The notes beneath the pieces were generated by a model. That model saw only the letters and a list, made by a program, of their open reading frames with translations. It was not told the origin of the DNA and ran no database searches. Shown piece by piece: positions 19,755-53,860 of a DNA stretch of 64,000 nucleotides; the stretch's first letter is position 1; each line of letters starts with the position of its first letter. The stretch spans positions 701,984 to 765,983 of the forward strand of contig CBDATD010000001.1 of the NCBI GenBank assembly GCA_965199935.1, read 5' to 3'. The stretch is from Bdellovibrionales bacterium (lineage in GTDB: Bacteria; Bdellovibrionota; Bdellovibrionia; Bdellovibrionales; UBA1609). The position numbers and the translations under genes are program-made.

Positions 19755-20372
19755 ATGATGAAATTTTACCTCCACCTTATCCTCATCTTCATCCTGTCCT
19801 ATGTCTTGTTAAGCAATTGCACTCCACAAACACAAGATTCATATCAAGCATCTGAAGAAGAAGAAATCGAAGAGGAAGACAGCGAGATTGGAGCTAGGAG
19901 CAACAGCAGTAGAAGAAGCGCCAGAAGAAGAGGCAGAAGCAACGGGGGAGGAACATCATCTACGGGAGGAACATCTACAGGAGGAACATCATCTACGGGA
20001 GGAACGTCATCTACGGGAGGAACATCATCCACAGGGGGAACATCTACAGGAGGAAGCCCGGCATCTTGCGGTTGGAGTTTTGATTATTCAGATGTAGATT
20101 GGGATGCCTCATACACCCCTATAGACAGCTTTGAATGTGTTCGATGCGTTGATGACGGCCACTACCTTGGGACTTTTCATTTCTACAAATGCAATCAAAA
20201 GTTTTCCAGTAGAATACACCACTGTATAGACGAAGAACTAGGGCAGTCCACAATTGACAGTATTTCACGTTTTAGATGCAGTAAAACCAACAGCAGTTGG
20301 TCGTGTTCAGAACTTTCCAGCGACCGATATTATGACAGTTTTATCGACTGCTTAAGAGATGAAAGAGTTTAA
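19755..20372 (+). CDS. lipoprotein with acidic stretch, GGTS(S)T tandem repeats and Cys-rich C-terminal domain
   Basis: Lipobox LLSNC. EEEEIEEEDSE, an RR-rich stretch, then GGTSSTGGTSTGGTSSTGGTSSTGGTSSTGGTSTGG. The C-terminal ~110 aa contain 10 Cys. Confidence 0.55.
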   Translation: MMKFYLHLILIFILSYVLLSNCTPQTQDSYQASEEEEIEEEDSEIGARSNSSRRSARRRGRSNGGGTSSTGGTSTGGTSSTGGTSSTGGTSSTGGTSTGGSPASCGWSFDYSDVDWDASYTPIDSFECVRCVDDGHYLGTFHFYKCNQKFSSRIHHCIDEELGQSTIDSISRFRCSKTNSSWSCSELSSDRYYDSFIDCLRDERV

Positions 20373-25397: not shown

Positions 25398-26582
25398 ATG
25401 GCAAAAGAAACATTTCAAAGGACGAAGGAGCATATCAATGTTGGTACTATTGGTCATGTGGATCACGGGAAAACCACTCTAACTGCGGCGATCACTGCTG
25501 TACTTGCCAAAAAAGGCGGCGCCCAGGTGATGAAATACGATGACATTGATAAAGCTCCCGAAGAAAAAGCGAGAGGTATTACTATTTCCACAGCTCACGT
25601 TGAATACGAGACAGAAAAACGCCACTACGCTCATGTGGACTGTCCGGGCCATGCTGATTATGTCAAAAACATGATTACAGGAGCCGCTCAAATGGATGGC
25701 GCCATCCTTGTGGTTTCAGCGACGGACGGGGCTATGCCTCAAACAAGAGAGCATATTTTGCTCGCTCGTCAAGTGGGGGTTCCGGCTATTGTGGTTTATT
25801 TGAATAAATGTGATCAAGAGAGCGATCCTGAAATGCAGGAAATTGTGGAAATGGAGCTTAAGGATTTGCTGAGTAAATACGAATTTCCAGGGGATAAAAT
25901 TCCTATCGTTAAAGGTTCTGCGCTCAAAGCTCTTGAAGGGGACGAAAAATTTGAAAAGTCTATTTTAGATTTGATGTCCGCTGTGGATTCTTATATTCCT
26001 TCTCCAAAAAGAGACAAGGAAAAACCTTACTTGATGCCTATTGAAGATGTCTTTTCTATTTCCGGCCGCGGCACTGTGGTGACAGGGCGTATAGAAAGAG
26101 GAATTGTAAAAATCAATCAAGAGGTGGAAATTGTCGGCATCAATGAAACAAAGAAAACAGTAGTGACAGGAATTGAAATGTTCAGAAAGCAATTGGATCA
26201 AGGAGAGGCTGGAGACAATGCTGGTTGTTTGCTGAGGGGTATTGACAAAACAGATGTGGAGAGAGGACAGGTGCTGGCCGCACCCGGCTCCATTACTCCT
26301 CATAAAAAGTTTAAGTGCCAGTGCTATGTATTAACCAAAGACGAAGGAGGAAGGCATAAAGCTTTCCACAATGGATACCGTCCGCAGTTTTATTTCCGTA
26401 CGACAGATGTGACGGGTTCAATTAGTTTGCCTAAGGGGACAGAGATGGTCATGCCTGGAGACAATGTCAGTATGGATGTGGAGCTTATTTCCCCTATTGC
26501 GATGGAAAAAGGTTTAAGATTTGCAGTTCGAGAGGGCGGACGCACGGTGGCTTCAGGGGTCGTTTCTGAAGTTGTAGAGTGA
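25398..26582 (+). CDS. tuf: elongation factor Tu
   Basis: [22 protein letters not shown]; 394 aa; GGAGG RBS. Confidence 0.98.
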
Positions 26583-26869: not shown

Positions 26870-27244
26870 ATGGGTAAGTACGCAAAAATTATTCAGGTCT
26901 CTGGTGTTTTATTTTCAATAACAGTTGGTTATTGCATAAAGGTCATTTTTGAGTTTTTTGCAGTTCTTTTCGGCCCCGCCGCCAAATTGTATGGGATGGA
27001 AGTATTTCGCCATGGGATTCCTCTGGGGCTGGGAGTTGTTTGCTTTTGTATTATTCAGTTTCATCCAAAAATTCAAAAATGGCTGATGGATGTGGTGACA
27101 GAAATTGACAAAGTTGTTTGGCCCACAAAAAAAGATACTTTTTCTATGACGGCGGTCGTTTGCTTCATCTTGGTTTTGTCCGGAATCGTTCTGGGCTTGT
27201 TTGATTTAAGTGCGGCAACACTGATGCGGTTTATTATGAATTAG
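26870..27244 (+). CDS. secE: preprotein translocase subunit SecE (three-TM form)
   Basis: C-terminal KVVWPTKKDT followed by a TM helix. Sits between tRNA-Trp and nusG. Confidence 0.8.
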   Translation: MGKYAKIIQVSGVLFSITVGYCIKVIFEFFAVLFGPAAKLYGMEVFRHGIPLGLGVVCFCIIQFHPKIQKWLMDVVTEIDKVVWPTKKDTFSMTAVVCFILVLSGIVLGLFDLSAATLMRFIMN

Positions 27245-27258
27245 GGAGTTTGTGAAAA

Positions 27259-27816
27259 ATGGTTGAACAAGAGAATTTGCTCCATAAGTGGTATATTGTG
27301 AAAACAAAAACGAATTGTGAGTTTCGGGCGAGGGATTCTATTCAAAATCTCGTTAAAAGCCATAAATTAAGCCAATATGTGAAGGATATTCTGGTCCCTG
27401 AGAAAGATGTGGTTGAGGTTGTAAAGGGGAAAAAGATGACTCGTTCAAAAAAATTCTATCCAGGCTACGTTTTTGTTCAAATGCACTTGACGGATCAAGT
27501 GTGGCATCTCATAAAGGGTGTCTCGAATGTTGTCAGTTTTGTAGGAGGCGGCAAAAAAGGATGGCCTCCGGAGGTTCCTGCAAAACAAATAGAAGTTATA
27601 CAAAGTCAGGTGAAGGAAGACTTTGAAAGTCCTGTAGTGAGTGCCTCTTTTTCTGTTGGGGAGAGGGTGGCCGTGATTGACGGGCCTTTTAAGGGCTTCA
27701 GCGGTGTTGTTAAAGAGGTTAATCAGGAGAAGGCTCGCATTAAGATTGAGGTGAGCATCTTCGGGGGGCCTACACCTGTGGAGCTGGATTTTGAGCAAGT
27801 GCATTCTGAGAGTTAA
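27259..27816 (+). CDS. nusG: transcription termination/antitermination factor NusG
   Basis: NGN start KWYIVKTKTNCE and KOW motif GERVAVIDGPFKGFSGVVKEV. Confidence 0.95.
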   Translation: MVEQENLLHKWYIVKTKTNCEFRARDSIQNLVKSHKLSQYVKDILVPEKDVVEVVKGKKMTRSKKFYPGYVFVQMHLTDQVWHLIKGVSNVVSFVGGGKKGWPPEVPAKQIEVIQSQVKEDFESPVVSASFSVGERVAVIDGPFKGFSGVVKEVNQEKARIKIEVSIFGGPTPVELDFEQVHSES

Positions 27817-27835
27817 TTTTTTAGGTTGGTAGAAT

Positions 27836-28264
27836 TTGGCAAAAAAAAGAACGATTTCAGCTCAAATAAAATTACAGATTCCGGCGGGAAAAGCCAATCC
27901 GGCTCCTCCTGTAGGGCCTGCTTTAGGTCAGCACGGTGTTAATATCATGGATTTTTGCAAGCAATTCAACGCCAGGACCGCCAAGATGGGGGACACTGTC
28001 GTCCCAGTTATTATTTCGGTTTATCAGGACCGTTCTTTTTCATTCATCCAAAAAACCCCGCCTGTTTCTGTTTTGTTGAAGAAAGCCTGCAATATTGCAA
28101 GCGGATCCAAGACCCCTCATAAGGAAAAAGTGGGGGTTTGCACTATGGAGCAAGTGAAAAAAATTGCGGAAACAAAAATGCCTGATTTGAATAGTTATAG
28201 TTTAGAAGGCGCTGTCTCTCAGGTCATTGGCACAGCACGCAGTATGGGTTTGGAAGTAAAGTAA
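27836..28264 (+). CDS. rplK: 50S ribosomal protein L11
   Basis: [30 protein letters not shown]; TTG start. Confidence 0.95.
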
Positions 28265-28283
28265 GAATTTTGAGGCTCAAAAT

Positions 28284-28985
28284 ATGAAGAAAAAATCGAA
28301 ACAATACCGTGCTTTTAAGTTTGAAAAAGACAAACTGTACCCTGTTGAATCAGCTCTTCGTCTTTTGGTTGAAAATAAAACAGCTCGATTTGATGAATCC
28401 ATTGATGCTGCGGTTTCTTTGGGTGTGGACACCCAGCAGTCTCATCAACAGGTTAGAGGGGCGGTTCTGCTTCCGCATGGATTGGCTAAACCCATTCGTG
28501 TTATCGTGTTTGCAAAAGGGGAGCAGGAGCAAAAAGCAAAAGAAGCCGGAGCCTTTGCTGTGGGCAGCGGCGATTTGGTTCAAAAGATTAAAGACGGCTG
28601 GCTTGATTTTGATCGGGTGATTGCGACTCCGGATCAAATGCCTATAGTTTCTAAAGCGGCGCCTTTGTTAGGCCCCAGAGGATTGATGCCAAATCCTAAG
28701 TTAGGCACAGTGACAACTGACGCGGCTAAAGCTGTAATCAATGAAAAAAAAGGGAAGGCTGTCTTTCGAGCAGGGCAGTCTGGGAAAATTGGTTTAGTCC
28801 ACAGCTCGATAGGCAGAAGGTCTCTCGGTGTTGAAAAATTAAAAGATAATTATCAGGCTTTTATAAGTGAATTAATAAGGGTCAAACCAGCTTCCAGCAA
28901 AGGTCTGTACTTAAGAAGAGTGTCTTTGTCTTCGACCATGGGGCCTTCATTGACCATAGACACCAACGAACCCCTGGCCAAATAG
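28284..28985 (+). CDS. rplA: 50S ribosomal protein L1
   Basis: 233 aa. FDESIDAAVSLGVD and GPRGLMPNPKLGTVT motifs. Confidence 0.95.
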   Translation: MKKKSKQYRAFKFEKDKLYPVESALRLLVENKTARFDESIDAAVSLGVDTQQSHQQVRGAVLLPHGLAKPIRVIVFAKGEQEQKAKEAGAFAVGSGDLVQKIKDGWLDFDRVIATPDQMPIVSKAAPLLGPRGLMPNPKLGTVTTDAAKAVINEKKGKAVFRAGQSGKIGLVHSSIGRRSLGVEKLKDNYQAFISELIRVKPASSKGLYLRRVSLSSTMGPSLTIDTNEPLAK

Positions 28986-28994
28986 GAAAAGATT

Positions 28995-29513
28995 GTGCTG
29001 ACAAAACAAACAAAATCTCAATATGTTTCTGAAATGTCCTCTTATTTTGAAAGAACTCAAGCGAGTTTTATGGTCCGTTTTCAAGGGTTGAGTGCGGCAC
29101 AGATGACAGATCTTAGAAACCAGCTAAGATCCAAAAAATCACAGCTCAAAGTGATGAGAAATACTCTTGTCCAGAGAGCTTTGGAAGGCGGCCCTCAGCA
29201 GGAAAAGTTTAGAGGATTTTTATCTGGCGCGAACGCTTTTGTGTTTGCTTTTGAAGATGTTTCGGGTACAGCTAAGGTGCTTGCTGATTTTGCAGAAGAC
29301 ACTGATTTGGAGTTAAAAGTTGGGAAGGTGGGGGAAAAATTTCTGTCAGAGAAGGAAATTGGACGCTTAGCCTCTCTGCCTTCTTTAGACAAACTGAGGG
29401 CTGAACTGCTCTCCGTCTTGTCGGCTCCAGCACAAAAACTTTTAAGAGTGTTTAATGAAGCGCCTTCATCTTTTTTGAGGGTTTTGCATTGTTCAACAAA
29501 AAATAAAAAATAG
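28995..29513 (+). CDS. rplJ: 50S ribosomal protein L10
   Basis: Position between rplA and rplL; 172 aa; GTG start; LRxxLR...LKVxRNTL pattern. Confidence 0.9.
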
Positions 29514-29521
29514 GGGGAAGC

Positions 29522-29899
29522 ATGGAAATCAATAAAGAATCAGTCATCGAGTATTTGTCTAAACTGCCTGTCATAGAGATGGCAGAGTTGGTGAAAGAAT
29601 TGGAGGAAAAGTGGGGCGTCAGTGCGTCAGCTCCAGCAGCTGTTGCCGCTGTGGGGGCGTCTGCTCCTGCAGAAGCTGGAACAGAGCAAACAGAATTCAG
29701 TGTGACATTAGCAGGGGTTGGCAGTAATAAAATTGCGGTCATTAAAGAGATTCGGGCTGTGACTAGTTTGGGGTTGAAAGAAGCTAAAGATTTGGTGGAC
29801 GGCGCTCCTAAAGTCATTAAAGAAAGTGTCAGTAAAGAGGAAGCTCAAAAGCTTAAAGAGGCTCTGGAAAAAGCCGGTGCTAAAGTTGAAGTGAAATAA
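29522..29899 (+). CDS. rplL: 50S ribosomal protein L7/L12
   Basis: Ala-rich hinge followed by [26 protein letters not shown]. Confidence 0.95.
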
Positions 29900-29919
29900 T
29901 TTTAAAAGGGAGACCGACG

Positions 29920-32900
29920 ATGAGCATTGTTGCTTCCAGATTAAAGCTGAGGAAGTCTTTTGGGAAGATAAAGACGGATTTTCACATTCCTAATTTGATT
30001 GAACTTCAAAAAAAGTCCTACGAAAAGTTTTTGCAGAAGGATGTCGATCCTGCAAAAAGGAAGAACCAAGGGCTTCAATCCGTTTTTAATTCTGTATTTC
30101 CCATTGCAGACTACAAGCAGACCGTCAGTTTGGAGTTTGTGAAATATACTTTACAACACCCCAAGTACGATGTGGAAGAGTGCCGCCAGAGAAAAATGAC
30201 TTTTGCTTCTCCTTTAAGAACAACTCTTCGTTTGGTGGTTTTTGATGTGAAAGAAGGGGCTGAGGAGCGTGTGGTGCGGGATGTGAAAGAGCAGGAAGTT
30301 TACCTTGGGGAAGTGCCTTTAATGACAGAAAGCGGTTCTTTTATTATCAATGGAACAGAGCGTGTTATTGTTTCCCAGCTTCACCGCTCTCCTGGTGTGT
30401 TTTTTGATCATGATGGAGGTAAAGGCAGTACAAGCGGCAAACTGATTTATTCTGCGAGGGTTATTCCTTATCGAGGCTCCTGGCTGGATTTTGAATTTGA
30501 CAACAAAGACTTAATTTACGCCCGCATTGACCGCAGAAGAAAATTTCCCGCAACCATTATACTTAAAGCTTTAGGCTACAGTGTCGAAGAATTGCTTTCG
30601 GCTTTCTACAACGTTGATTGTGTGAATGTTCTTCGAAATGGAAAAATCTTTGTTCATTTAGATATGGACCGCATGATCGGACAAAGAATTTTGGCGGATA
30701 TTAAAGATAACAAAGGTAAAGTTTTAATTCGCGCCGGTCGAAGAGTGACTCGTGCGGCGGCCCGCCAGGTGAAGACAGCTCAAATTAAGAAGATGGAGCT
30801 TACTAAGGAAAATTTAAAAGGAGCTGTTTTGGCAAATCCTCTGATTGATTCTCAAACGGGGGAGATTTTATCTGATACAAATTCTGAGATGAACACAGCT
30901 CTTTTTGAAAAAGCTGTAAAAGCCGGCATTCGAAATTTTAATTTGATATTTTTTGACGGCCTCACGGTGGGGCCTTATCTTTGCAACACTCTTTTAGTGG
31001 ATAAAGTTTTCACGAGGGAAGAGGCTGTTCAAGAAATTTACAAGAGGATGAAGCCTGGTGAACCTCCTGCTTTGGAAATAGCTGAATCTTACTTTAAAAG
31101 TTTGTTTTTTGATCCTGAACAATATGATTTGGGAGAGGTGGGCCGTTTAAAGATCAACCATCGTTTCGATATTTCTTTTGAAAAAGCGCCATTATCGACC
31201 GGTACTTTACAGAAGGAGGATTTTATTCGTGTGGTGCGAACCCTTGTGGATTTGAAAAATGGCAGGGGGCAGGTGGATGATATTGATCACTTGGGCAATC
31301 GGCGTGTGCGGTCTGTAGGGGAGCTTTTGGAAAATCAGTACCGTATCGGTCTTGTTCGCATGGAAAGGGTGGTGAAAGACCGCATGAATCTGCAGGACAA
31401 AGAGACTGTCATGCCTCATGATTTGATCAATGCTAAATCGGTCAATTCAGTGGTTAAGGAATTTTTTGGATCCAGCCAGCTTTCTCAATTTATGGATCAA
31501 ACCAATCCTTTAGCGGAGATCACTCACAAAAGACGCCTCTCTGCTTTAGGTCCTGGGGGTTTGACAAGAGATCGAGCCGGCTTTGAAGTGCGTGACGTCC
31601 ATCCAACTCACTATGGACGCATCTGCCCTATTGAGACGCCGGAGGGCCCTAATATTGGATTGATCGCTTCACTGGCTACATTCGCGCGTATAGATGAGTA
31701 TGGATTTATTGAAACCCCTTACAACTCTGTTGTGAATCATAAAATTACGGAAGATATTCGCTATGTTTCCGCTTTGGAAGAACAAAAACACTGTATTGCT
31801 CAAGTAAGCCCTGTGTTTAATCAACTCTCTGTAGATCAGCTTATTATGGCCCGAGAAAAAGGAGAGTATAAAACTGTGCGAAAAGAAAGGGTGTCTATGA
31901 TGGACGTTTCGCCGGGGCAGTTGGTTTCTGTGGCTTCGTCGTTGATTCCTTTTTTAGAGCATGACGACGCCAACCGCGCTCTTATGGGCTCCAATATGCA
32001 GAGGCAGGCGGTGCCGCTGTTGAAAGCTAAAGCTCCTCTTGTGGGGACGGGAGTGGAGTATTTAGTAGCGAGAGATTCAGGGACTTCAGTAGTCTGCAAA
32101 AATGATGGTGTTGTGGAAGCTGTAGATGCCGGTCAAATTGTGATTCGAAGATTGGTGAAGGAGGGAAAACTTGGAGCCTCTGTAGATATTTATAATTTGA
32201 CTAAATATCAGAGGACTAATCAAAACACCTGCTTTAATCAAAGACCTATTATTCAACAAGGAGATCGGGTTTCTAAAGGGGACGTCATTGCAGACGGCCC
32301 TTCGACCGATCAGGGTGAATTGGCTTTAGGCCAAAACATCGTTGTCGCCTTTACTCCGTTTGAGGGGTATAATTTTGAGGATTCTATTTTAATATCGGAA
32401 AGGCTTATCCGCGAGGATGTTTACACTTCTATTCATATTGAAGAATTTGAGTGTGTGGCGAGAGACACCAAATTAGGAAAAGAGGAAATCACTCCAGACA
32501 TTGCAAATGTAGGAGAAGAGGCTTTGCGCAATCTAGACACATCAGGGATTATTCAAGTGGGATCCAGAGTGAAGCCAGGAGATATTTTGGTTGGTAAAAT
32601 CACCCCAAAAGGGGAAAGTCAAGTTTCTCCGGAGAAAAAACTTCTGCTGGCTATCTTTGGAGAAAAAGCAGGCGAAGTGAGGGATACGTCACTGAGAGCT
32701 CCTTCTGGGGTGACAGGGACAGTTATTGACACCCAAGTTTATAGTAGAGAAGGCGTTGAGCAGGATGAAAGACTCAAAAGCATTATTGAGGAAAAAAAGC
32801 AGAAGCTGAAAAAAGATTTTGAGCTGGAAAAAAATGTGATCCGAAACGATGCTCTGGATAAAATTAGGGAAGTTCTTATCGGACAAAAAACAAAAGATAT

Positions 32901-34053
32901 CTTTTTAAATGATGATGCTTCAGAAGAGCTGTTGAAAAAAGGCCAGAAAATCACAGAAGAAGACTTAGAAAAAATTCCTTTTGAGCTGTTGGGGAATATT
33001 CCTTTGGCCAATGATTCTGTCAGCGATCAACTCAATCAAATTACAGATTCAGCCCGTCATCAGCTGTCCGCTGTTGAATTGATTTACAAAGACAAAGTAG
33101 ATTGTCTTTCTAAAGGCGATGATATGCCTCCTGGTGTTGTTAAAATGATTAAAGTTTACGTGGCTGTGAAGAGAAAATTGCAGGTTGGAGATAAGTTTGC
33201 AGGCCGCCATGGAAATAAAGGGGTTATTTCAAAGATTCTGCCGACAGAAGATATGCCCTATTTGGCAGACGGCACTCCAGTTGATATGGTTTTAAACCCC
33301 TTGGGGGTTCCTTCCAGAATGAACATCGGCCAAATTTTAGAAACTCATTTAGGCTGGGCGGCCTACAGTTTAGGTGTACAGTTGAAAAAGTATTTAGATT
33401 GTTTTAATGAGGAGAGTGCAAAAAAAGATCTAAAAAATATTTTTTCAGAAGATGAAAAACTGGTGAAGCAATTAGAAGTTTTAAAGGAATCTGAGATGAA
33501 GGATGTGGTTTCTTATTTAAGCGGAGGGATTCATGTCGCGACTCCAGTTTTCGATGGCGCTAAAGAGGATGAGGTGAAAAAACTTCTGACAAAAGCCAAA
33601 CTTCCTGTTTCCGGGCAGACAGTTTTATTTCATGGAGGCACGGGAGAGCCTTTTTGTATGCCTGTGACTGTAGGTGTGATGTATATGCTCAAACTTCATC
33701 ATTTGGTGGAAGAAAAGATTCACGCCCGGTCCACAGGCCCTTATTCTTTAGTTTCTCAACAGCCTCTAGGAGGCAAAGCTCAGTTCGGAGGACAGCGTTT
33801 GGGAGAGATGGAAGTCTGGGCTGTCGAAGCTTACGGAGCCGCTTACTGTCTGCAGGAGTTTTTAACTGTGAAGTCTGACGATGTGGCAGGCCGAACGCGT
33901 ATGTATGAAAGCATCATTAAAGGTGAAAATGTATTGGAGCCTGGCATCCCTGAAGCCTTTAATGTGCTGGTGAAAGAACTGCAAAGTTTAGCTTTAGATG
34001 TCGAGCTGGTGGAATCTGATTTATTAACTGAGAAACCTAAAAAAATTATTTAG
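29920..34053 (+). CDS. rpoB: DNA-directed RNA polymerase beta subunit
   Basis: 1377 aa; [26 protein letters not shown]. Confidence 0.98.
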
Positions 34054-34066
34054 AAGGGCAAGAGTT

Positions 34067-37000
34067 ATGAGAGATTTATTAAATTTTTTTGATAAGCCAA
34101 AAGACCCCCTTACGTACAGTCATGTGCGTATTTCTTTGTCTTCTCCAGACATTATTCGCAAGTGGAGTTTTGGAGAAGTTCGCAAGCCGGAAACCATTAA
34201 CTATCGTACTTTCAAGCCGGAAAAAGACGGCCTCTTTTGTGCGAAAATTTTTGGACCTACAAAAGATTATGAATGTTTGTGCGGCAAATACAAGGGGATG
34301 AAATACAGAGGTGTGGTTTGTGAAAAATGCGGCGTTGAAATTGTTAAATCAAAAGTCAGAAGAGAAAAAATGGGGCATATTGAACTGACAACGCCTGTGG
34401 CTCACATTTGGTTTCTAAAATCTCTGCCCAGCCGCATCGCCATGCTTTTAGATATGTCTTTAAAAGACGTGGAGCGTGTTCTTTACTGTGAATGCTATAT
34501 CGTTATGGATCCTTTAGACACTCCTCTGAAAAAAGGGGATCTTCTAACGGAGGAGGCTTATCTTCAGGCCCAAGAGGAGCACGGCCCCCATTTTAAAGTT
34601 TCTACCGGAGGAGAGGCTGTTCGGGATATGTTAAAAGGTTTGGATTTGGACTATGTGTCCCGCAAATTAAGAAAAGAACTTAAAGAAGCTACTTCAGACA
34701 ATCAGCAAAAGAAAATCATCAAGAGATTAAAAGTGATAGAGACATTTTTAAATTCAAAAAACCGCCCAGAGTGGATGATGCTTGAAGCTCTGCCTGTTAT
34801 ACCTCCAGATCTTCGTCCATTGGTTCCCTTAGACGGCGGACGCTTTGCCACTTCTGACTTAAATGATCTTTACCGTCGTGTGATTAACCGAAACAACCGC
34901 CTCAAGAGATTGCAGGAACTCAATGCCCCAGATGTTATTATTCGAAATGAGAAGCGTATGCTTCAAGAAGCTGTGGATGCTTTGTTGGATAATGGACGGG
35001 GAGGTAAAACTTTTACCAGCCCCAACAAAAGACCTCTTCGCTCTTTAAGTGATATGCTTAAAGGAAAGCAGGGAAGGTTCAGGCAAAATCTTCTTGGGAA
35101 AAGGGTGGATTATTCCGGCCGCTCTGTGATTGTTGTAGGTCCTAGATTAAAACTGCACCAATGCGGTCTTCCGAAAAAAATGGCATTGGAGTTGTTCAAG
35201 CCTTTTATTTATCACAAATTGGAGCAAAAAGGGCTGGCCGTTACTATCAAGCAGGCCAAAAAGCTGGTGGATCAGGAAAGTGTAGAAGTTTGGGATATCC
35301 TATCTGAAGTTGTGAAGGAACATCCCGTGCTTTTGAACCGCGCGCCCACTTTGCACCGTTTGGGCATTCAAGCTTTTGAACCTGTCTTACACGAAGGCAA
35401 GGCTATACAGCTTCATCCTCTGGTGTGTACAGCTTTCAATGCTGACTTTGACGGGGATCAAATGGCTGTTCATGTACCGCTTTCTATGGAAGCTCAAGTG
35501 GAGGCTCGTGTTCTCATTATGTCCACTAATAATATTCTCAGTCCTGCGAACGGACGGCCGGTGATTAATCCTTCTCAGGATATTGTGCTTGGAATTTATT
35601 GGATGACCCGCATCCGGCCTGGAGCGAAAGGATCGGGGCAGGTTTTTGCAAGTGTACAAGATGTTATTTATGCCTATGATACAGGAGAGGTGGATTTACA
35701 GGCGGCTGTAGAATGCCGTGTACAGGGAGAAAGAGTGAAGACGTCTGTGGGAAGGGTTCTTTTAAACGATATTGTGCCGGAGGCCGTTCCATTTGAAAAA
35801 TATAATAAAGTTATGAATAAAAAAGCTTTAGCGGAGCTTATTGACAGCACTTTCCGCGCTTCCGGAGGCAAGTTAACGGCAATCCTTGCAGATCGGCTGA
35901 TGGGCCACGGTTTTAAATTTTCCACTATTGGAGGAATTTCGATTTGTTTGGATGATTTAAAAATCCCTGAGTCGAAACGCAAATTGTTGGATATTGCAAG
36001 AAAACAAGTCAATGAAATCCGTACTCAATATGATGAGGGGTTGATCACGGAAGGAGAGAGGTACAATAAGGTTGTCGATATTTGGGCTCAGTGCGGCGAC
36101 CAGGTGGCTAAAGAAATGATGAAAAATTTGGAAAAAGAGTTTTTCAATGTCGGCGGTAAAAAAGTGGAGGGAGATAGTTTTAACCCCATCTTTATCATGG
36201 CGGACTCTGGGGCAAGAGGTTCAGCGGCTCAAATCCGCCAGCTGGCTGGAATGAGAGGTTTAATGGCTAAACCTTCTGGTGAAATTATTGATACTCCAAT
36301 CATAGCTAATTTTAGAGAGGGGTTAACTGTTCTTCAATACTTTATTTCTACTCATGGAGCCCGCAAAGGATTGGCGGATATGGCGCTGAAAACAGCAAAT
36401 TCCGGATACCTTACTCGGCGTTTAGTCGATGTGGTTCATGATGTTGTTATTTCTGAAAGAGATTGCGGCAGTGTGGAATGCATCACTGTCACTTCTTTGC
36501 AGGAAGGAGGCGGTGTCATTCAAGATATAGGAGAGAGAATTTTAGGACGCACAGCTTTTGGAGATATTGTGAACCCGGACTCTTCGGAGGTGATCTGTGC
36601 CGGCGGGCGGGAAATTGACGAGGCGGTAGTTGAGCAGGTAGAGAAGTTGGGAATTGAGTCTGTCAAGCTGCGTTCGACCCTTACTTGTAAATCCAAATGG
36701 GGTGTTTGCGTGAAATGCTATGGAAGGGATTTGTCGCGGGGCCAGACAGTCAATCTTTCTGAGCCTGTGGGTGTAATCGCCGCTCAATCTATTGGAGAAC
36801 CGGGAACTCAGCTCACTATGAGAACTTTCCATTTAGGGGGGACGGCTTCTAGATCTGTTGAGCAGTCTGTACACACAGCCGCTAAAGAAGGAAAGGTGAA
36901 ACTGCAAAACACTCACATAGTTGTCAATAAAGAAGGAAAGCGTGTTGTGATGAATCGGCAGGGGTGTATTGTTTTATTAGACAGCCATGGTCGGGAAAGA

Positions 37001-38197
37001 GAAAAATTCAAATTGGTTTATGGAGCTTGTTTAAGTGTTAAAGAGGGATCTATGGTTAAAAAAGGAGATGTATTGGCGGAGTGGGATCCTTACTCTAATA
37101 CTATTTTAGCGGATGTGTCCGGCGCCATTCAATTTAAAGACATTGAAGAGGGTGTTTCCATGAGTGAACAGGTGGATGCTGTTACGGGGTTTTCCACTAA
37201 AGTTATTATTGCTTCAAAGTCTTCAAGCCAAAAGCCTACTGTTGCGATTGTGGATGATAAGGGAAAGGAAATAATTTTTACTGAAAGAGGCACTCCTGTG
37301 AAATATACAATTCCTGTGGGCGCTCAGTTGTTGGTGTCTCATGGGGATAAAATTGTCGCTGGAGATATTTTAGCAAAAATGCATAGAAAGTCTGCTCAAA
37401 CCCGCGATATTACGGGTGGTTTGCCTCGTGTGGCCGAACTTTTTGAGGCCAGAGTTCCCAAAGAGGCGGCTATTATTTCTGAGATAGAGGGTTATGTGAG
37501 TTTTGGCCGTGATTTAAAAGGCAAACAAAGGGTTATTATTACTTCTAAAGAGGGGGAACAGCAGGAATATCTGATCCCTAAAGGAAAGCATGTGGCTGTT
37601 CGCGAAGGGGAATTTATTGGAGTGGGAGAAACTATTATGGACGGCCCCAGCGATCCTCATGATATTTTGAAGGTTTCCGGAGAACTGGCTTTAGCTTCTT
37701 ATTTGGTAAACGAGGTGCAGGAGGTGTATCGTCTTCAAGGTGTCTCTTTGAATGATAAGCATATTGAATTGATTGTTCGTCAAATGATGAGGAAGGTGGA
37801 AATTGTGTCCGCTGGAGACACTCGCTTTCTGCCGAGCGAGCATTTGGATAAATTTGAAGTGATGGAGGTCAATGAGAAAACAGTTAAAGAAGGAGGGTCG
37901 CCAGCTCAATACCGGCCGCTTCTTTTAGGAATTACTAAGATGTCTTTAAATACGGACAGTTGGATTTCAGCGGCTTCGTTCCAAGAAACAACAAGGGTCT
38001 TAACCACAGCGGCGACGCAGTCTAGGATTGACTATCTACACGGCCTCAAAGAGAATATTGTAATGGGCCGGTTGATCCCTGCAGGAACGGGAATGTCCTG
38101 TTATAGAGATTTAAAACCTCAATTTGCTGAGGAAGAAGAGGAGGCGGTTTTGCTTCCAAACAGCGTTTCTGATCCATCGGCAGTGCGGGTTCAATAA
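34067..38197 (+). CDS. rpoC: DNA-directed RNA polymerase beta' subunit
   Basis: 1376 aa; Zn-finger CLCGKYKG...CEKCGVE and catalytic [12 protein letters not shown]. Confidence 0.98.
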
Positions 38198-38239
38198 CTT
38201 ATTGACTCCTAAGAGGGGTAGGAGCATATTGGCCTCGCT

Positions 38240-38614
38240 ATGCCAACGTTAAACCAGCTGATTAAAACCAAAAGAACGGCTCCTAAAGTCAGGACGAAGT
38301 CTCCTGCTTTGACAAGATGTCCTCAAAAAAGAGGAGTTTGCACTCGTGTTTTTACAGTGACTCCAAAAAAACCTAATTCTGCTTTAAGAAAAGTGGCCAG
38401 AGTGCGTTTGTCTAATGGCTTTGAAGTGAACTCTTATATTCCAGGCATTGGACACAATTTACAGGAGCATAGTGTGGTTTTGGTTCGGGGCGGGCGTGTG
38501 AAAGATCTGCCGGGAGTGAAGTATCATATTATAAGAGGGGCTTTAGACGGCCAGGGTGTGGAAAACAGAAAAAGAGGACGCTCTAAATACGGAAGCAAGA
38601 GACCAAAAAAGTGA
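38240..38614 (+). CDS. rpsL: 30S ribosomal protein S12
   Basis: PTLNQLIK...[20 protein letters not shown]. Confidence 0.97.
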
Positions 38615-38617
38615 TGC

Positions 38618-38773
38618 TGTTGTTGTCGAGTCGATGGTTGGTATGAGAGAAGGGTGCGGTAAGAGCTAACTTGGGATAGGTGAAATAATGTCTGGGAATG
38701 TTGTTGTCGAGTCGATGGTTGGTATGAGAGAAGGATGCGGTAAGAGCTAGCTTGGGATAGGTGAAATAATGTC
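38618..38773 (+). repeat. tandem direct repeat (two 75-bp units, 81-bp period) covering the rpsL-rpsG spacer, rpsG RBS and start codon
   Basis: Unit 1 (38618-38692) and unit 2 (38699-38773) differ at 2 positions. Both end in GGTGAAATAATGTC. Confidence 0.9.
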
Positions 38774-39242
38774 GAGGAGAAATAGAAAGATTGATCGAAG
38801 GGAGCCGGCGGAGGATCCAAAGTATGGTGATCCTGTTTTGGGGCATTTTATTAACAAGCTTATGTGGGACGGCAAGAAGGAATTGGCTAGGAAGATTCTT
38901 TATTCTGCATTTGATGAGATTGGAAAAAAGGCTTCTCAGGATGCTCTTTCTGTTTTTAAAAAAGCTTTGGAAAATTGCAAGCCTTCTTTAGAGGTGCGTT
39001 CCAGAAGGGTGGGGGGCGCTACCTATCAGGTGCCGGTGGATGTGCGTCCTGTTCGGCGCGCCACTTTGGCTATGAGATGGATTATTTTGCACTCTAGATC
39101 TAGGAAAGAAAAAACTATGTCCAGCCGGCTGGCGGAAGAATTACTGGACGCTTATAATAATAAGGGGCAGTCCATTAAGAAGAAAGAGGATGTGCATCGC
39201 ATGGCAGAGGCCAATCGGGCTTTTTCTCATTACAACTGGTAA
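38769..39242 (+). CDS. rpsG: 30S ribosomal protein S7
   Basis: 157 aa; [22 protein letters not shown]. Confidence 0.97.
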
Positions 39243-39294
39243 TCTGTCTTTCAACACAAGTCGTTCGTTCAATTCAAATCATGCCCTGACAAAA

Positions 39295-39326
39295 AAGAAG
39301 AGGACTTACAGCCCCCTTCTTTTTTA
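39295..39326. terminator. probable bidirectional rho-independent terminator between rpsG and tRNA-Arg
   Basis: AAGAAGAGG...CCCTTCTT stem with one bulge. Flanked by an A-run upstream and a T-run downstream, so it reads as a terminator on both strands. Confidence 0.5.
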
Positions 39327-39329
39327 TTA

Positions 39330-39403
39330 TGATGGCGGCAGGATTCGAACCTGCGGCCTACGGCTTAGAAGGCCGTTGCTCTATCCAACTGAGCTACGCC
39401 ACC
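39330..39403 (-). tRNA. tRNA-Arg (anticodon TCT)
   Basis: Reverse complement: GGTGGCGTAGCTCAGTTGGATAGAGCAACGGCCTTCTAAGCCGTAGGCCGCAGGTTCGAATCCTGCCGCCATCA. Confidence 0.9.
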
Positions 39404-39410
39404 ATTAAAA

Positions 39411-40703
39411 TTACATTCGATCTTTTTTTCCATAATAAAACAAAATTAAAAAACCCAAAAAACCTGAAAGTAAAGAAGCCAGAAAAATAGAAGCCTTTGA
39501 ATAGCTTTCCAACACTGGATCATAGTTTAAACTTAAACTGCTGATAAATAAAGCCATTGTGAATCCAATGCCCGCCAGGCACCCCACTCCCAAAATATGA
39601 GGCAGATGCACGCCCGCAGGCAGTTTCACCCATTTCAAACGTACGGCCGCCCAGGAAAATAAAAAGATGCCAAGAGGTTTTCCCACAAAAAGCCCTAGAA
39701 AAATTCCGTCAAAGACAGAGCTTGAATAAAAATCCATAAAAGAGAATTTTGCATCAAACTTTAAGCCGGAATTACAAAAAGCAAAAATGGGCATAATAAC
39801 AAAACTCACCAGCCCATGCAGACGGTCAATAAGCCATTGAACCGGCGGCTGAAAACTGCGAAGTTTTTGAGCTGTTTTTTCTAATTGATAAGAGGAGGGT
39901 TGATTTGTATCTATCAGCTGTTTTAACTCTTCGTTCGCCTCTGATTTTCGAAAAGGCAAAGGGCGGGCCGGAGTCATCAGCCCTAAAATAACCCCGGCAA
40001 TCGTGGCGTGAATGCCGCTTTTTAAAACAGCAAACCACAAAATCGCTCCCAGTATGAGATAAACAAAATAACTATAAATACGAAGCTGTTTGAAACAAAA
40101 AATTAGGAATATTGCTAAACCCGACAAAGAAATCCAAAATCCAGAAAGCTCTGAAGAGTAAAAAGAAGCAATGACCAACACGGCTCCTAAGTCGTCGATA
40201 GTGGCTAAGGCCAGCAAAAAGATTTTTAAAGATAAGGGAATATTCAGAATAAAAGCCAGCACTCCGACAGCAAAGGCAATGTCTGTCGCCATCGGAACCC
40301 CCCATCCCACGATGCTTTCTTGACCTATATTGAAAGAAATATAAATTAAGGCTGGAACAATCATGCCCCCCAAGGCCGCCATAAAAGGCAGAAAGGCCTC
40401 TTTCCGAGAAGACAGTGAACCTCCTGCAAGCTCTCTTTTAATTTCTAAGCCGACAACAAAAAAGAAAATTACCATTAAGCCGTCATTCACCCAATGATGA
40501 AATGACATTTCCAGAGTGAAGTTTCCAAAGCCAATGGAAATTGGAAAGTAAAGCAGGCTGTCGTACCATAGCTTCAAGGGGGTATTGGCGCAAATGAGAG
40601 CTAACACAGCCGCCCCCAAAAGCAAAACACCGCTGCTGGTTTGCAGCGCCAGGAAACGTTCAATGGGACTTAGAATATTTTGGAGAAGCGATTTTTTGGA
40701 CAT
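39411..40703 (-). CDS. nhaA: Na+/H+ antiporter NhaA
   Basis: Polytopic membrane protein with FFFVVGLEIKRE and ATIDDLGAV motifs. Start probably the internal Met (MSKKSLL); the ORF-track start is 40757. Confidence 0.85.
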   Translation of the reverse strand: MSKKSLLQNILSPIERFLALQTSSGVLLLGAAVLALICANTPLKLWYDSLLYFPISIGFGNFTLEMSFHHWVNDGLMVIFFFVVGLEIKRELAGGSLSSRKEAFLPFMAALGGMIVPALIYISFNIGQESIVGWGVPMATDIAFAVGVLAFILNIPLSLKIFLLALATIDDLGAVLVIASFYSSELSGFWISLSGLAIFLIFCFKQLRIYSYFVYLILGAILWFAVLKSGIHATIAGVILGLMTPARPLPFRKSEANEELKQLIDTNQPSSYQLEKTAQKLRSFQPPVQWLIDRLHGLVSFVIMPIFAFCNSGLKFDAKFSFMDFYSSSVFDGIFLGLFVGKPLGIFLFSWAAVRLKWVKLPAGVHLPHILGVGCLAGIGFTMALFISSLSLNYDPVLESYSKASIFLASLLSGFLGFLILFYYGKKDRM

Positions 40704-40841
40704 ATTGATCCACCCTTGTTGTTTTGCAATTATCTTAAAATTTTTTAAATTTGTCATCCGTTCATTGACAGTGAAAAACTGTGCTATTATGACTTGCAGT
40801 CAGTCACCCCTGTTAAGCCGTTTTTATTTTGGATTAGAATC

Positions 40842-45446: not shown

Positions 45447-45461
45447 ACTGCACCTGTAAAA

Positions 45462-45755
45462 AAGAGCAGGGGCTGTAAGCCGGATTCTGTCCAGTTTATA
45501 AAAACCTGGGCGGCTATTCATCTTTGCGATCAACCCGAAAGTTTAGCATAGGCGATGCACTTTCTTATTTGATCTTGCTCCGCATAGAGTTTAGCTGATT
45601 TCACTCCAGCAGTAAAAAATTTACTCTGGACATACTTTCTGTTCCACTAGTCCTCACCTCAAAGAGGTGGAAGAGATTTCTCCCTTTATGCCGCCTTGTG
45701 GAGTCCGGACTTTCCTCTTCCAAAATGTGAAAGCAACCGCCCGCCCCCGCTGTTC
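45462..45755 (-). ncRNA. rnpB: RNase P RNA (bacterial type A-like, compact)
   Basis: On the minus strand: GAAGAGGAAAGTCCGGACTCCACAAGG (CR-I), GGAACAGAAAGT, CGGAGCAAGATCAAATAAG, AGATGAATAGCCGCCC, and ACAGAATCCGGCTTACAGCCCC near the 3' end. 5' AGCGGGGG pairs with 3' CCCCTGCT (P1). Ends are good to about 5 nt. Confidence 0.85.
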
Positions 45756-45789
45756 ATATAAAGAGCATAAAACCGTTTTTTGAGCAATC

Positions 45790-46003
45790 ATGTCTTCTGA
45801 TGTCTTCTCAAGCCTTCTCAGGGGGTATTTCGCAGATTTTGAGCAAAAAGAGGGTCAAAACCCCTCTAAACTGCATTTTTGATCCATGTCTTCTGATGTC
45901 TTCTCAAGCCTTCTCAGGGGGTATTTCGCAGATTTGGGGTCAAAATCTCTTCAAAACCCTTCTAAACTGCATTTTTGATCCATGTCTTCTGATGTCTTCT
46001 CAA
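45790..46003. repeat. 96-bp tandem repeat, 2.2 copies
   Basis: Units start at 45790, 45886 and 45982. The first 50 nt and last 20 nt are conserved. The 26-nt cores (45840-45865 and 45936-45961) differ. Confidence 0.9.
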
Positions 46004-52228: not shown

Positions 52229-53860
52229 TTAGTCTTCATCTGACAAGTCATCTTCATTGTATTCTACTGTATTTTCTGACAGACTGTCTTCATTATATTC
52301 TTTTGTATCCTTTGACAGGCTGTCTTTGTTTGAAATGTCATACTTATTTGGGAGGCTGTTTGCAAGCCCCAGAAAATCATCCCAACTTTTCCACTCACCG
52401 GATTTTTTATAAACAGTTTTTGGGTTAAGAGGAAAATTTTCTGGAAAAAAATCTGATTCAAGTTTCAGCATTTCAAAAAAATTCTCTGATGTATTGAGTC
52501 CTGCGCGGGATATAAAAATTTTAGCCTCTTCATAAGACATATGTTTTTCTGAAGATAAGAAGCTTTTTGTGTTGATCCATTCCGGGTAAAATTTCTGAGG
52601 CTGTGAGGGAAAGTTTACAGGTCTGTCCTTAGATTTCAGCCACTCGATAAAATTTTTAGGATTGCTGATGCCTAAAGATTGAATAAAAGCTTTAGCTTCC
52701 TGATAGCTCATCCATTCTTGTGGTTTTGGTTTAGTGTTTCCGGTGTCTAAAAAATCCCCCCAGTCAATCCACTGATCTTTATAAATGATGTTGGGATTTG
52801 TTGGAAAGTTTACAGGTCTTTTCTCAGAACTTCTCCATCTTCGAAACTCTCTGTTAGTTTGAATACCTTGTTTCTGAATATAAGCTTTAGCCTCTTCAAA
52901 GCCCATCCATTTTCTTTTTCCTGGCGCGATGTTTTTAGTGCCTAAAAAACTGCTCCAACTCATCCATTCTTCTGCGTAAACCCGCCATGGAGCGGATGGA
53001 AAATTTTCCGGTCTTTTTCCAAACTTTTTCCATTCTTCAAAGTCTGCAATCGTTTGGATCCCCTGAGATTGAATAAAAGCTTTAGCTTCTTGATAGCTCA
53101 TCCATTCTTGTGGTTTTGGTTTAGTGTTTCCGGTGCCTAAAAAATCCCCCCAGCTGCTCCACTGATCTTTATAAATTTCAGGGGGATGAGATGGAAAATT
53201 TTCAGGTTTTTTCTCAGAATTTCTCCATTTTCGAAACTCTCTAGTGGTTTGAATACCTTGTTTCTGAATATAAGCTTTAGCCTCTTCAAAGCCCATCCAC
53301 TTTCTTTCTGTCCCGAAGAAATGCGGCCAACTCACCCACTCCTTGTTGTAAGTTCTCCATGGAGCGGATGGAAAGTTGTTTGGCCTCTGTTCAGATTTGC
53401 TCCACTTTCGAAATTGTTGAACTAATGTGATTCCTGCTTTTTGAATAAAGATTCTTGCCTCTTCAAAGTTCATATACTCTCTTTTTATGGGGGAAATGTT
53501 CTTCGTTTCTAAAAAATCCCCCCAGCTTTTCCATTCTTCATAAACGAGGTTTGGTTTGGATGGGAGATTTTTAGGTTTTTTTCTGGATTTTGATAATTCT
53601 TCAAACTGTGTGCTGGTTTGGATCCCCTGTTTTCGTATATAAGCTTTAGCTTCCTGATAGCTCATCCATTTGTTTCTTTTTCTTCCTGGAGTCTTTTTAT
53701 TATTATGAGGCGAATTTGCCTGCTTAATTTCATCAACCTCTGCGGGTTCAGATTGAGAGATGTTGCGCGGTCGAAATCCTTTTTCACATTCTTCTTTTGC
53801 GTGAGCAAATGTGAAAACAGTCAATAATAAATATAAGATACTCCATTTCATATTCGACAT
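52229..53860 (-). CDS. secreted protein built from seven ~60-66-aa tandem repeats, acidic C-terminal tail
   Basis: Signal peptide MKWSILYLLLTVFTFAHA. Repeats fit WM.[YF].EAKA[YF]IQ..GI......F..W......P.NFPS.P...Y...W.SW..FLGT. Antisense to the flanking liu genes. Confidence 0.7.
   Translation of the reverse strand: MSNMKWSILYLLLTVFTFAHAKEECEKGFRPRNISQSEPAEVDEIKQANSPHNNKKTPGRKRNKWMSYQEAKAYIRKQGIQTSTQFEELSKSRKKPKNLPSKPNLVYEEWKSWGDFLETKNISPIKREYMNFEEARIFIQKAGITLVQQFRKWSKSEQRPNNFPSAPWRTYNKEWVSWPHFFGTERKWMGFEEAKAYIQKQGIQTTREFRKWRNSEKKPENFPSHPPEIYKDQWSSWGDFLGTGNTKPKPQEWMSYQEAKAFIQSQGIQTIADFEEWKKFGKRPENFPSAPWRVYAEEWMSWSSFLGTKNIAPGKRKWMGFEEAKAYIQKQGIQTNREFRRWRSSEKRPVNFPTNPNIIYKDQWIDWGDFLDTGNTKPKPQEWMSYQEAKAFIQSLGISNPKNFIEWLKSKDRPVNFPSQPQKFYPEWINTKSFLSSEKHMSYEEAKIFISRAGLNTSENFFEMLKLESDFFPENFPLNPKTVYKKSGEWKSWDDFLGLANSLPNKYDISNKDSLSKDTKEYNEDSLSENTVEYNEDDLSDED

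Follow-up and report, generated by a model that had tools for sequence, protein, structure and literature searches.

Tandem duplication of the rpsG translation-initiation region creates an upstream open reading frame between rpsL and rpsG in a Bdellovibrionales bacterium

In E. coli, ribosomal protein S7 (uS7) binds structured RNA between rpsL and rpsG in the str operon and represses coupled rpsG translation alone (PMC3616713; PMC10931766), and most S7 synthesis is coupled to translation of rpsL (PMC3616713). This operator is an RNA of about 96 nt that folds into three stems and carries defined S7 contact motifs, 5′-AGUAA/UGAAN and 5′-CCA/UUGGR (PMC3616713). RNAs of the E. coli type are confined to Gammaproteobacteria, and long spacers elsewhere differ in structure (PMC3616713; PMC10931766); roughly one bacterial genome in three is reported to have an extended, non-conserved rpsL–rpsG spacer (Fu et al. 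2013, PMC3616713). Here we analysed a 64,000-nt stretch of a Bdellovibrionales genome (the window) in which rpsL and rpsG, both on the same strand, are separated by 154 nt. This spacer is like the E. coli operator in its position between the two genes on one mRNA, its extended length and its plausible control by translational coupling, and like the spacers of Fu et al. 2013 in being long without an E. coli-like structure. Unlike the latter, it owes its extra length to a specific, traceable tandem duplication that runs from the rpsL stop to the rpsG start.

The gene order in the window is tuf, tRNA-Trp, secE, nusG, rplKAJL, rpoBC, rpsL, rpsG. Gaps in this cluster measure 8–20 nt, with 42 nt ahead of rpsL, and the rpsL–rpsG spacer is an outlier. 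The secE–nusG–rplKAJL–rpoBC portion (26870–38197) is very compact, with only 9 nt between the ORFs assigned to rplA and rplJ by gene order. Scanning the spacer returned no internal promoter-like or terminator-like site between rpsL and rpsG; a promoter candidate precedes rpsL, and a terminator-like hairpin beyond rpsG probably marks the end of a bicistronic operon. All S7 homologues begin MSRR, and ATG 38769 is therefore the real S7 start, as the first-pass annotation of this DNA had placed it. Two kinds of call were set aside: minus-strand ORFs of 98 and 87 aa that cross the spacer are mechanical and unsupported and overlap both rpsL and rpsG, while P0006 and P0068 (262 and 208 aa, labelled S7) are chimeric calls with internal repeats, sit on short contigs and are irrelevant here. 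The features of the locus are as follows.

38202–38230, plus strand: sigma-70-like promoter candidate for the rpsL–rpsG bicistron, TTGACT-17-CATATT (consensus scan, 9/12 matches; a consensus match only)
38240–38614, plus strand: rpsL (S12, 124 aa), from the ORF list; its TGA stop at 38612–38614 overlaps an ATG (TGATG)
38614–38646, plus strand: predicted mini-ORF of 10 codons whose ATG overlaps the rpsL stop (TGATG), read from the sequence
38618–38692, plus strand: repeat copy 1, comprising a-module 38618–38659, b-module 38660–38687 and then ATGTC (Tandem Repeats Finder and offset-81 comparison)
38643–38669, plus strand: predicted mini-ORF of 8 codons, MREGCGKS and a stop, joined to the preceding mini-ORF by an ATGA overlap, read from the sequence
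38678–38683, plus strand: Shine–Dalgarno (SD) sequence of the upstream ORF (uORF), AGGTGA, 4 nt before its ATG, from the sequence
38688–38750, plus strand: uORF of 20 codons, MSGNVVVESMVGMREGCGKS and a stop, in the rpsG frame, with TAG at 38748–38750 (ORF list)
38693–38698, plus strand: junction between the copies, TGGGAA, matching neither flank (offset-81 comparison)
38699–38773, plus strand: repeat copy 2, comprising a-module 38699–38740, b-module 38741–38768 and then the first 5 nt of rpsG (Tandem Repeats Finder and offset-81 comparison)
38759–38764, plus strand: SD of rpsG, AGGTGA (sequence and duplex energy)
38769–39242, plus strand: rpsG (S7, 157 aa), true start ATG 38769, from the ORF list; identical to P0001
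39298–39317, no strand assigned (the scan reported minus): terminator-like hairpin past rpsG with T/A runs on both sides (scan and sequence)

Downstream of this bicistron the str operon is cut down to rpsL–rpsG. The ORF list holds no fusA downstream of rpsG, and across 39243–40757 neither fusA nor tuf follows; rpsG is succeeded by the terminator-like hairpin, a minus-strand tRNA-Arg(tct) and, on the other strand, an NhaA-type antiporter gene. The tuf gene lies upstream at 25398–26582, ahead of tRNA-Trp and secE. The best genome match, relative L001, has the same arrangement.

The first-pass annotation had described the spacer as two 75-bp units with an 81-bp period and two mismatches, both ending in the same SD-ATG-TC sequence, and the repeat searches bear this out. 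Tandem Repeats Finder reports a repeat at 38618–38773 (period 81, 1.9 copies, 97% matches, no indels, score 298), and comparison at an offset of 81 aligns 75 bases of 38618–38692 with 38699–38773, with two mismatches, at 38654 (G/A) and 38669 (A/G). The sequence AGGTGA-AATA-ATGTC closes each copy, and the non-repeated part of the spacer amounts to only 3 nt after the rpsL stop plus the 6-nt junction, which differs from the flanks at 3/6 positions against 2/75 in the core. The repeat is real and far exceeds chance: at offsets of 20–200 nt the longest run with no more than two mismatches is 75 in the window, compared with 16–20 in 20 whole-window shuffles. The unit is rich in G and U (G 38%, U 29%, A 25%, C 8%). 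Further copies were found neither in the window nor in the first 80 loci, and a search of viral contigs, plasmids and phages gave no match to the unit. We found nothing to indicate where the a-module came from: its similarity to the 5′ end of rpsG, the 3′ end of rpsL and the remainder of the window is not significant, and neither is that to plasmids or phages. Duplication mediated by TGTCGAG microhomology was considered and rejected; it predicts a 65-nt period, not 81.

The duplicated segment takes in the SD and start codon of rpsG and thereby creates an upstream ORF, as had been claimed: the ORF list confirms that the first ATG (38688) opens 20 codons that end 18 nt before rpsG. The period of 81 nt is 27 codons, and the uORF shares the rpsG frame. 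The sequence from −70 to +5 is identical at ATG 38688 and ATG 38769, and, if the conserved anti-SD sequence is assumed, uORF and rpsG have the same SD duplex energy, −10.7 kcal/mol (rpsL is weaker, at −6.1 kcal/mol). Start accessibility is 0.52 for the uORF versus 0.40 for rpsG. Because the context is shared, the SD equally strong and the start at least as accessible, the uORF is expected to be translated. Read in the uORF frame, the two mismatches are synonymous (GGG/GGA and TAA/TAG), and the stop is kept. Two further mini-ORFs precede it in copy 1 with weak SD duplexes (−2.9 and −4.3 kcal/mol), the second ending in a TAA 18 nt before the uORF ATG; copy-1 mini-ORFs and uORF might form a chain of coupled ORFs, which we raise as a possibility. 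The uORF is like known bacterial uORFs and termination–reinitiation arrangements in that a short ORF with its own SD ends 18 nt from the main start, on the SD of the main gene, and unlike them in that its start is an exact copy of the initiation region of the main gene. We found no sign that the uORF senses anything, be it through an arrest peptide or through attenuation, and a scan returned no terminator or anti-terminator structures. A stop-codon reassignment that fuses the uORF to S7 was rejected: TAA, TGA and TAG all end conserved genes, and S7 homologues start MSRR.

We compared spacers across relatives, as the first-pass annotation had suggested. The closest sequences belong to Bdellovibrionales assembled from metagenomes, whose genomes measure 1.4–1.9 Mb and among which L001 (OZ240230.1) is the best genome match (S7 95% and S12 96% identical to the window proteins) and L091 has the S7 closest to that of the window, with two substitutions. 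Across the relatives recovered, rpsL plus rpsG DNA is 83–87% identical to the window, a comparison that leaves out L098. The spacers sort as follows.

L085/86: spacer of 9 nt, no trace of the unit
L091 and L098: spacer of 12 nt, no trace of the unit
L087–89: spacer of 13 nt, no trace of the unit
L090: spacer of 14 nt, no trace of the unit
L001: spacer of 17 nt, no trace of the unit
L084: spacer of 70 nt, homologous to L094/95 and not to the window
L094/95: spacer of 72 nt, homologous to L084 and not to the window
L093: spacer of 75 nt, alignable to none of the others
L092: spacer of 113 nt, a clear homologue of the unit

The unit is thus shared by L092 alone, and the eight contigs of closest relatives (L001, L085–L087, L089–L091 and L098; L088 is a second database copy of L087 and is not counted), about 84–87% identical to the window in rpsL plus rpsG DNA, have spacers of 9–17 nt from which it is absent. 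Spacer length takes the values 9, 12, 13, 14, 17, 70, 72, 75, 113 and 154 nt at 83–93% coding identity, and the long spacers of the clade are of three mutually unalignable types. Across about 90 loci most Bdellovibrionales spacers measure 4–32 nt and hold no ATG; a screen of these loci for a repeat of their own rpsG initiation region found none, a screen that also missed the diverged first copy of L092. The spacer is thus prone to insertion, duplication and deletion, a hot spot of such changes, and the unit is not an ancestral leader.

Several observations accompany this comparison. The sister pair L091 and L093, both from sample ERZ19489113, are 91% identical over rpsL plus rpsG, yet have spacers of 12 and 75 nt, a difference of 63 nt; the L093 spacer carries TAAGG at both ends, which hints at expansion or contraction between short direct repeats. 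The unrelated 72-nt spacer of L094 (2929–3008; same coordinates in L095) holds a 23-codon ATG ORF, MFIFIILSVSRNFYKSTGRLEYV and a stop, that starts 9 nt past the rpsL stop with GAGGG upstream and ends in a TAG overlapping rpsG codons 2–3; in the homologous spacer of L084 the same frame is open and has no ATG. In L084, L092, L094 and L095, rpsL–rpsG no longer adjoins rpoC. Upstream of rpsL lie RcpC/secretin (pilus) genes in L084 and L092 and ankyrin-repeat proteins in L094 and L095; the ankyrin-repeat proteins hint at a host-associated lifestyle of this small-genome clade.

The 113-nt spacer of L092 is informative for the history of the repeat. In a global alignment it is collinear with b1–junction–a2–b2 of the window, with one large difference, a 45-nt gap that falls at the first a-module of the window, directly after the rpsL stop. 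The L092 junction is ATGGTTGAGAGTGATGATCATGTCGAG, and it contains GAGAGTGATG, which joins nucleotides 6–8 of rpsG (rpsG start ATGTCGAG; ..GAG) to the rpsL end, stop and next bases (AGTGATG; in the window, A AAG TGA TG). This 10-mer is unique to the L092 junction among the window and 98 loci checked. The two b-modules of L092 are 21/28 identical (75%), compared with 73/75 (97%) between the window copies. A 20-nt block, UGUCGAGUCGAUGGUUGGUA, is identical between window and L092, UUGGG is present in 4/4 b-copies of the two, and the junction indel between them is 3 nt and in frame. The collinear uORF of L092 has 18 codons, MVESDDHVESMVGTEEEC and a stop, and ends 28 nt before rpsG. A scan of metagenomes with a codon-aware pattern of the unit matched by chance a single unrelated sequence, present in three copies, and nothing else; this pattern extended into the part that varies in L092, for which reason the conserved 20-nt block is the better probe, and TGTCGAGTCGATGGTTGGTA and TAAGAGYTRACTTGGGA are the probe strings we propose for finding orthologues of the unit.

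Judged by the L092 junction, the duplicated segment was about 86 nt long, comprising the last bases and stop of rpsL, a spacer of about 75 nt and rpsG to about codon 3, copied head to tail. The b–junction–a–b layout is common to the window species and one other species, L092, and we read the duplication as having arisen in the common ancestor of the two lineages. Replication slippage or unequal recombination would have produced it. In the window the joint would then have degraded and lost 5 nt, which accounts for the 81-nt period, and TGGGAA can be read as the degraded relic, 5 nt shorter, of the joint between rpsG start and rpsL end. L092 would later have lost 45 nt in frame, whereupon the TAG of its first unit would have become its rpsL stop. 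The diverged b-modules of L092, beside near-identical window copies, and the diverged junction within the window core fit a duplication of old date; on this evidence the window copies were probably homogenised later by gene conversion or freshly re-duplicated, a choice that turns on a single relative. Independent duplications at the same boundaries in the two lineages are also conceivable.

Three properties of known slippage or unequal-recombination duplications are found here: head-to-tail copies beyond chance, a junction that joins the right end of the segment to its left end (in L092) and copy number and spacer length that vary among relatives, with the 45-nt deletion in L092 fitting the same process. 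Unlike a typical slippage duplication, the window segment includes a start codon and an entire ribosome-binding site, both belonging to an essential gene, and its copies are 97% identical though the layout seems older than the species.

The same comparison bears on whether the second copy is an artefact of mis-assembly or of polishing long reads. The source is apparently metagenome-assembled, P0001 lies on a single 991,574-nt contig, and exact look-ups of S7, S12 and P0001 find no conspecific assembly, so the copy number comes from one assembly. Against this stand the two positions at which the copies differ, a junction distinct from both flanks, two intact flanking genes and, from another species and sample, an independent assembly (L092, ERZ26050812) with a homologous two-b layout. 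We judge an artefact to be the most improbable of the explanations considered.

The first-pass annotation had also proposed that each unit is an S7-binding translational operator, doubled by the duplication in a way that could alter S7 autoregulation. Its duplication and uORF stand, as described above, and its operator does not. The proposal draws on a position like that in E. coli, between rpsL and rpsG (PMC3616713; PMC10931766), on UUGGG and UGAAA in the b-module, which fit UUGGR and UGAAN of the E. coli consensus, on the recurrence of UUGGG in all four b-copies and on the fact that S7 regulation is unstudied outside Gammaproteobacteria and cyanobacteria (per PMC10931766). Folding gives no match to this expectation: the units have minimum free energies of −10.6 and −11.6 kcal/mol, with z of +0.55 and −0.49 against shuffles, and the whole spacer has z +0.27, compared with z −2.44 for the E. 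coli rpsL–rpsG spacer in the same test. RNAalifold, run on the copies of the window and L092, finds no compensatory pairs and an energy of about −5.6 kcal/mol. Nowhere in the spacer do two C residues stand side by side, which leaves the second S7 site without its CCA half; the motifs that do occur are short enough (4–5 nt) to be expected from chance and coincide in part with the SD region, and no helix places UUGGG and UGAAA as in E. coli.

Sequence comparison, a test of low power, gave no significant match of the unit to either 16S rRNA or the operator. In local alignments of the unit to 16S rRNA, 221/500 shuffles score equally, a low-power test in which the E. coli operator itself reaches only 58/500 and which used the E. 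coli 16S, not that of the host; against the E. coli operator, 499/500 shuffles score equally, again a low-power test. Rfam returned no match to the spacer at the gathering threshold (window) or at E ≤ 10 (38500–38900). This silence is uninformative because the E. coli control (L096 1583–1678, the K-12 spacer) also matches no family in Rfam 15, even at E ≤ 1; Rfam is without an S7-leader model, and a missing Rfam match is not usable as evidence against an S7 leader anywhere. Rfam also finds no ribosomal-protein leader, such as the L10 leader, anywhere in the window, and the organism may do without classical ribosomal-protein autoregulatory RNAs.

Among the features of the E. coli operator, then, the spacer has the position, between rpsL and rpsG on the same transcript, and shows neither a stable multi-helix structure, nor the contact motifs, nor conservation with covariation. 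The window unit differs from that operator in its composition, rich in G and U and poor in C (8%), in folding no better than shuffled sequence, in being duplicated and missing from the closest relatives, and in having no fusA downstream. The 9–17-nt spacers of the closest relatives, the mutually unalignable long spacers of the clade and a whole ribosomal-protein cluster with no detectable leaders add to this. The first-pass annotation had itself stated that an identical two-unit structure in distant relatives would refute its proposal if it lacked an S7-operator-like fold; the relative L092 has a two-unit layout and no such fold, and the operator idea fails on this account. We regard a doubled S7 operator as very improbable.

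Together these results favour, with a probability of about two in three, a slippage-type tandem duplication, specific to this lineage, in the unstable spacer of a clade of uncultured Bdellovibrionales with small genomes, one that is tolerated by virtue of the in-frame stop and reinitiation distance and is not a conserved leader. Judged by the shared initiation context, ribosomes would initiate at 38688 and 38769 with about equal success. Those on the uORF would terminate at its TAG, sitting on the rpsG SD 18 nt upstream of the rpsG ATG, and could reinitiate at rpsG over a distance that would mimic the 9–17 nt between rpsL stop and rpsG start in short-spacer relatives. The in-frame TAG would prevent a 27-residue N-terminal extension of S7. 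The uORF is thus likely to be translated and to hand its ribosomes to rpsG by reinitiation, acting as a relay or buffer and not as an S7-responsive operator, and the net effect on S7 output would probably be small.

Several features hint at constraint on the layout, each of them statistically weak: its presence in two species, the open uORF of L092, the in-frame junction indel, the identical 20-nt block and the silent copy differences. They count against a purely neutral duplication because neutrality would not predict them. They might instead reflect a selected leader, in which translation of the uORF, and not its peptide, keeps rpsG coupled to upstream translation across the lengthened spacer or tunes the S7:S12 ratio. 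The L092 layout with its open 18-codon uORF and 3-nt in-frame indel would fit such selection, as would the strong SD and accessible start of the uORF, its retained stop and a stop-to-start distance of 18 nt that resembles the 9–17 nt of short-spacer relatives. The unrelated L094/L095 spacer also carries an ATG ORF, of 23 codons, whose stop overlaps the rpsG start, and in E. coli S7 synthesis is mostly coupled to rpsL translation (PMC3616713). Set against this, the layout is common to one relative only, an open frame of 18–20 codons has an estimated chance of about 0.25 at this base composition, the long L093 spacer has no ATG, and close relatives manage with 9–17 nt. The peptide is poorly conserved outside the block that is also identical in nucleotides, with no sign of coding selection. 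Selection for such a relay therefore seems to us rather unlikely.

A more elaborate version would make b–junction–a–b a maintained, lineage-specific S7 control module, in which the relay uORF replaces stop/start coupling of rpsL and rpsG, gene conversion keeps the copies identical, and free S7 or another factor acts on UGUCGAGUCGAUGGUUGGUA or on UUGGG/UGAAA. We consider this distinctly unlikely; if true, it would mean that S7 autoregulation has been solved anew, by non-homologous means, outside Gammaproteobacteria.

We regard the find, a tolerated slippage-type duplication on our preferred reading, as a curiosity of modest interest. It documents an rpsL–rpsG spacer whose length switches, from one close relative to another, between 9 and 154 nt. 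If simply tolerated, it implies that a highly expressed, essential gene can easily have its initiation region copied and that an in-frame stop and a reinitiation distance can render such a copy harmless. If under selection, it would be a natural test case both for relay coupling by a uORF within an operon of ribosomal-protein genes and for the regulation of S7 in a phylum that offers no studied example. For annotation it carries two warnings: rpsG does not start at the first ATG preceded by a perfect SD, and position alone is no ground for calling a long S12–S7 spacer an S7 operator.

The window contains other tandem repeats. An intergenic one at 45789–46003 (period 96, 2.2 copies, 91% matches, Tandem Repeats Finder score 360) adjoins the RNase P RNA gene (45460–45752, minus strand, RF00010, 160 bits) and suggests that the genome is prone to such duplications. 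Two more lie inside ORFs: one at 52676–53299 (195-nt period, 3.2 copies, 67% matches) within ORF 52229–53860 on the minus strand, and one with an 18/33-nt period at 19946–20055 within ORF 19755–20372 on the plus strand.
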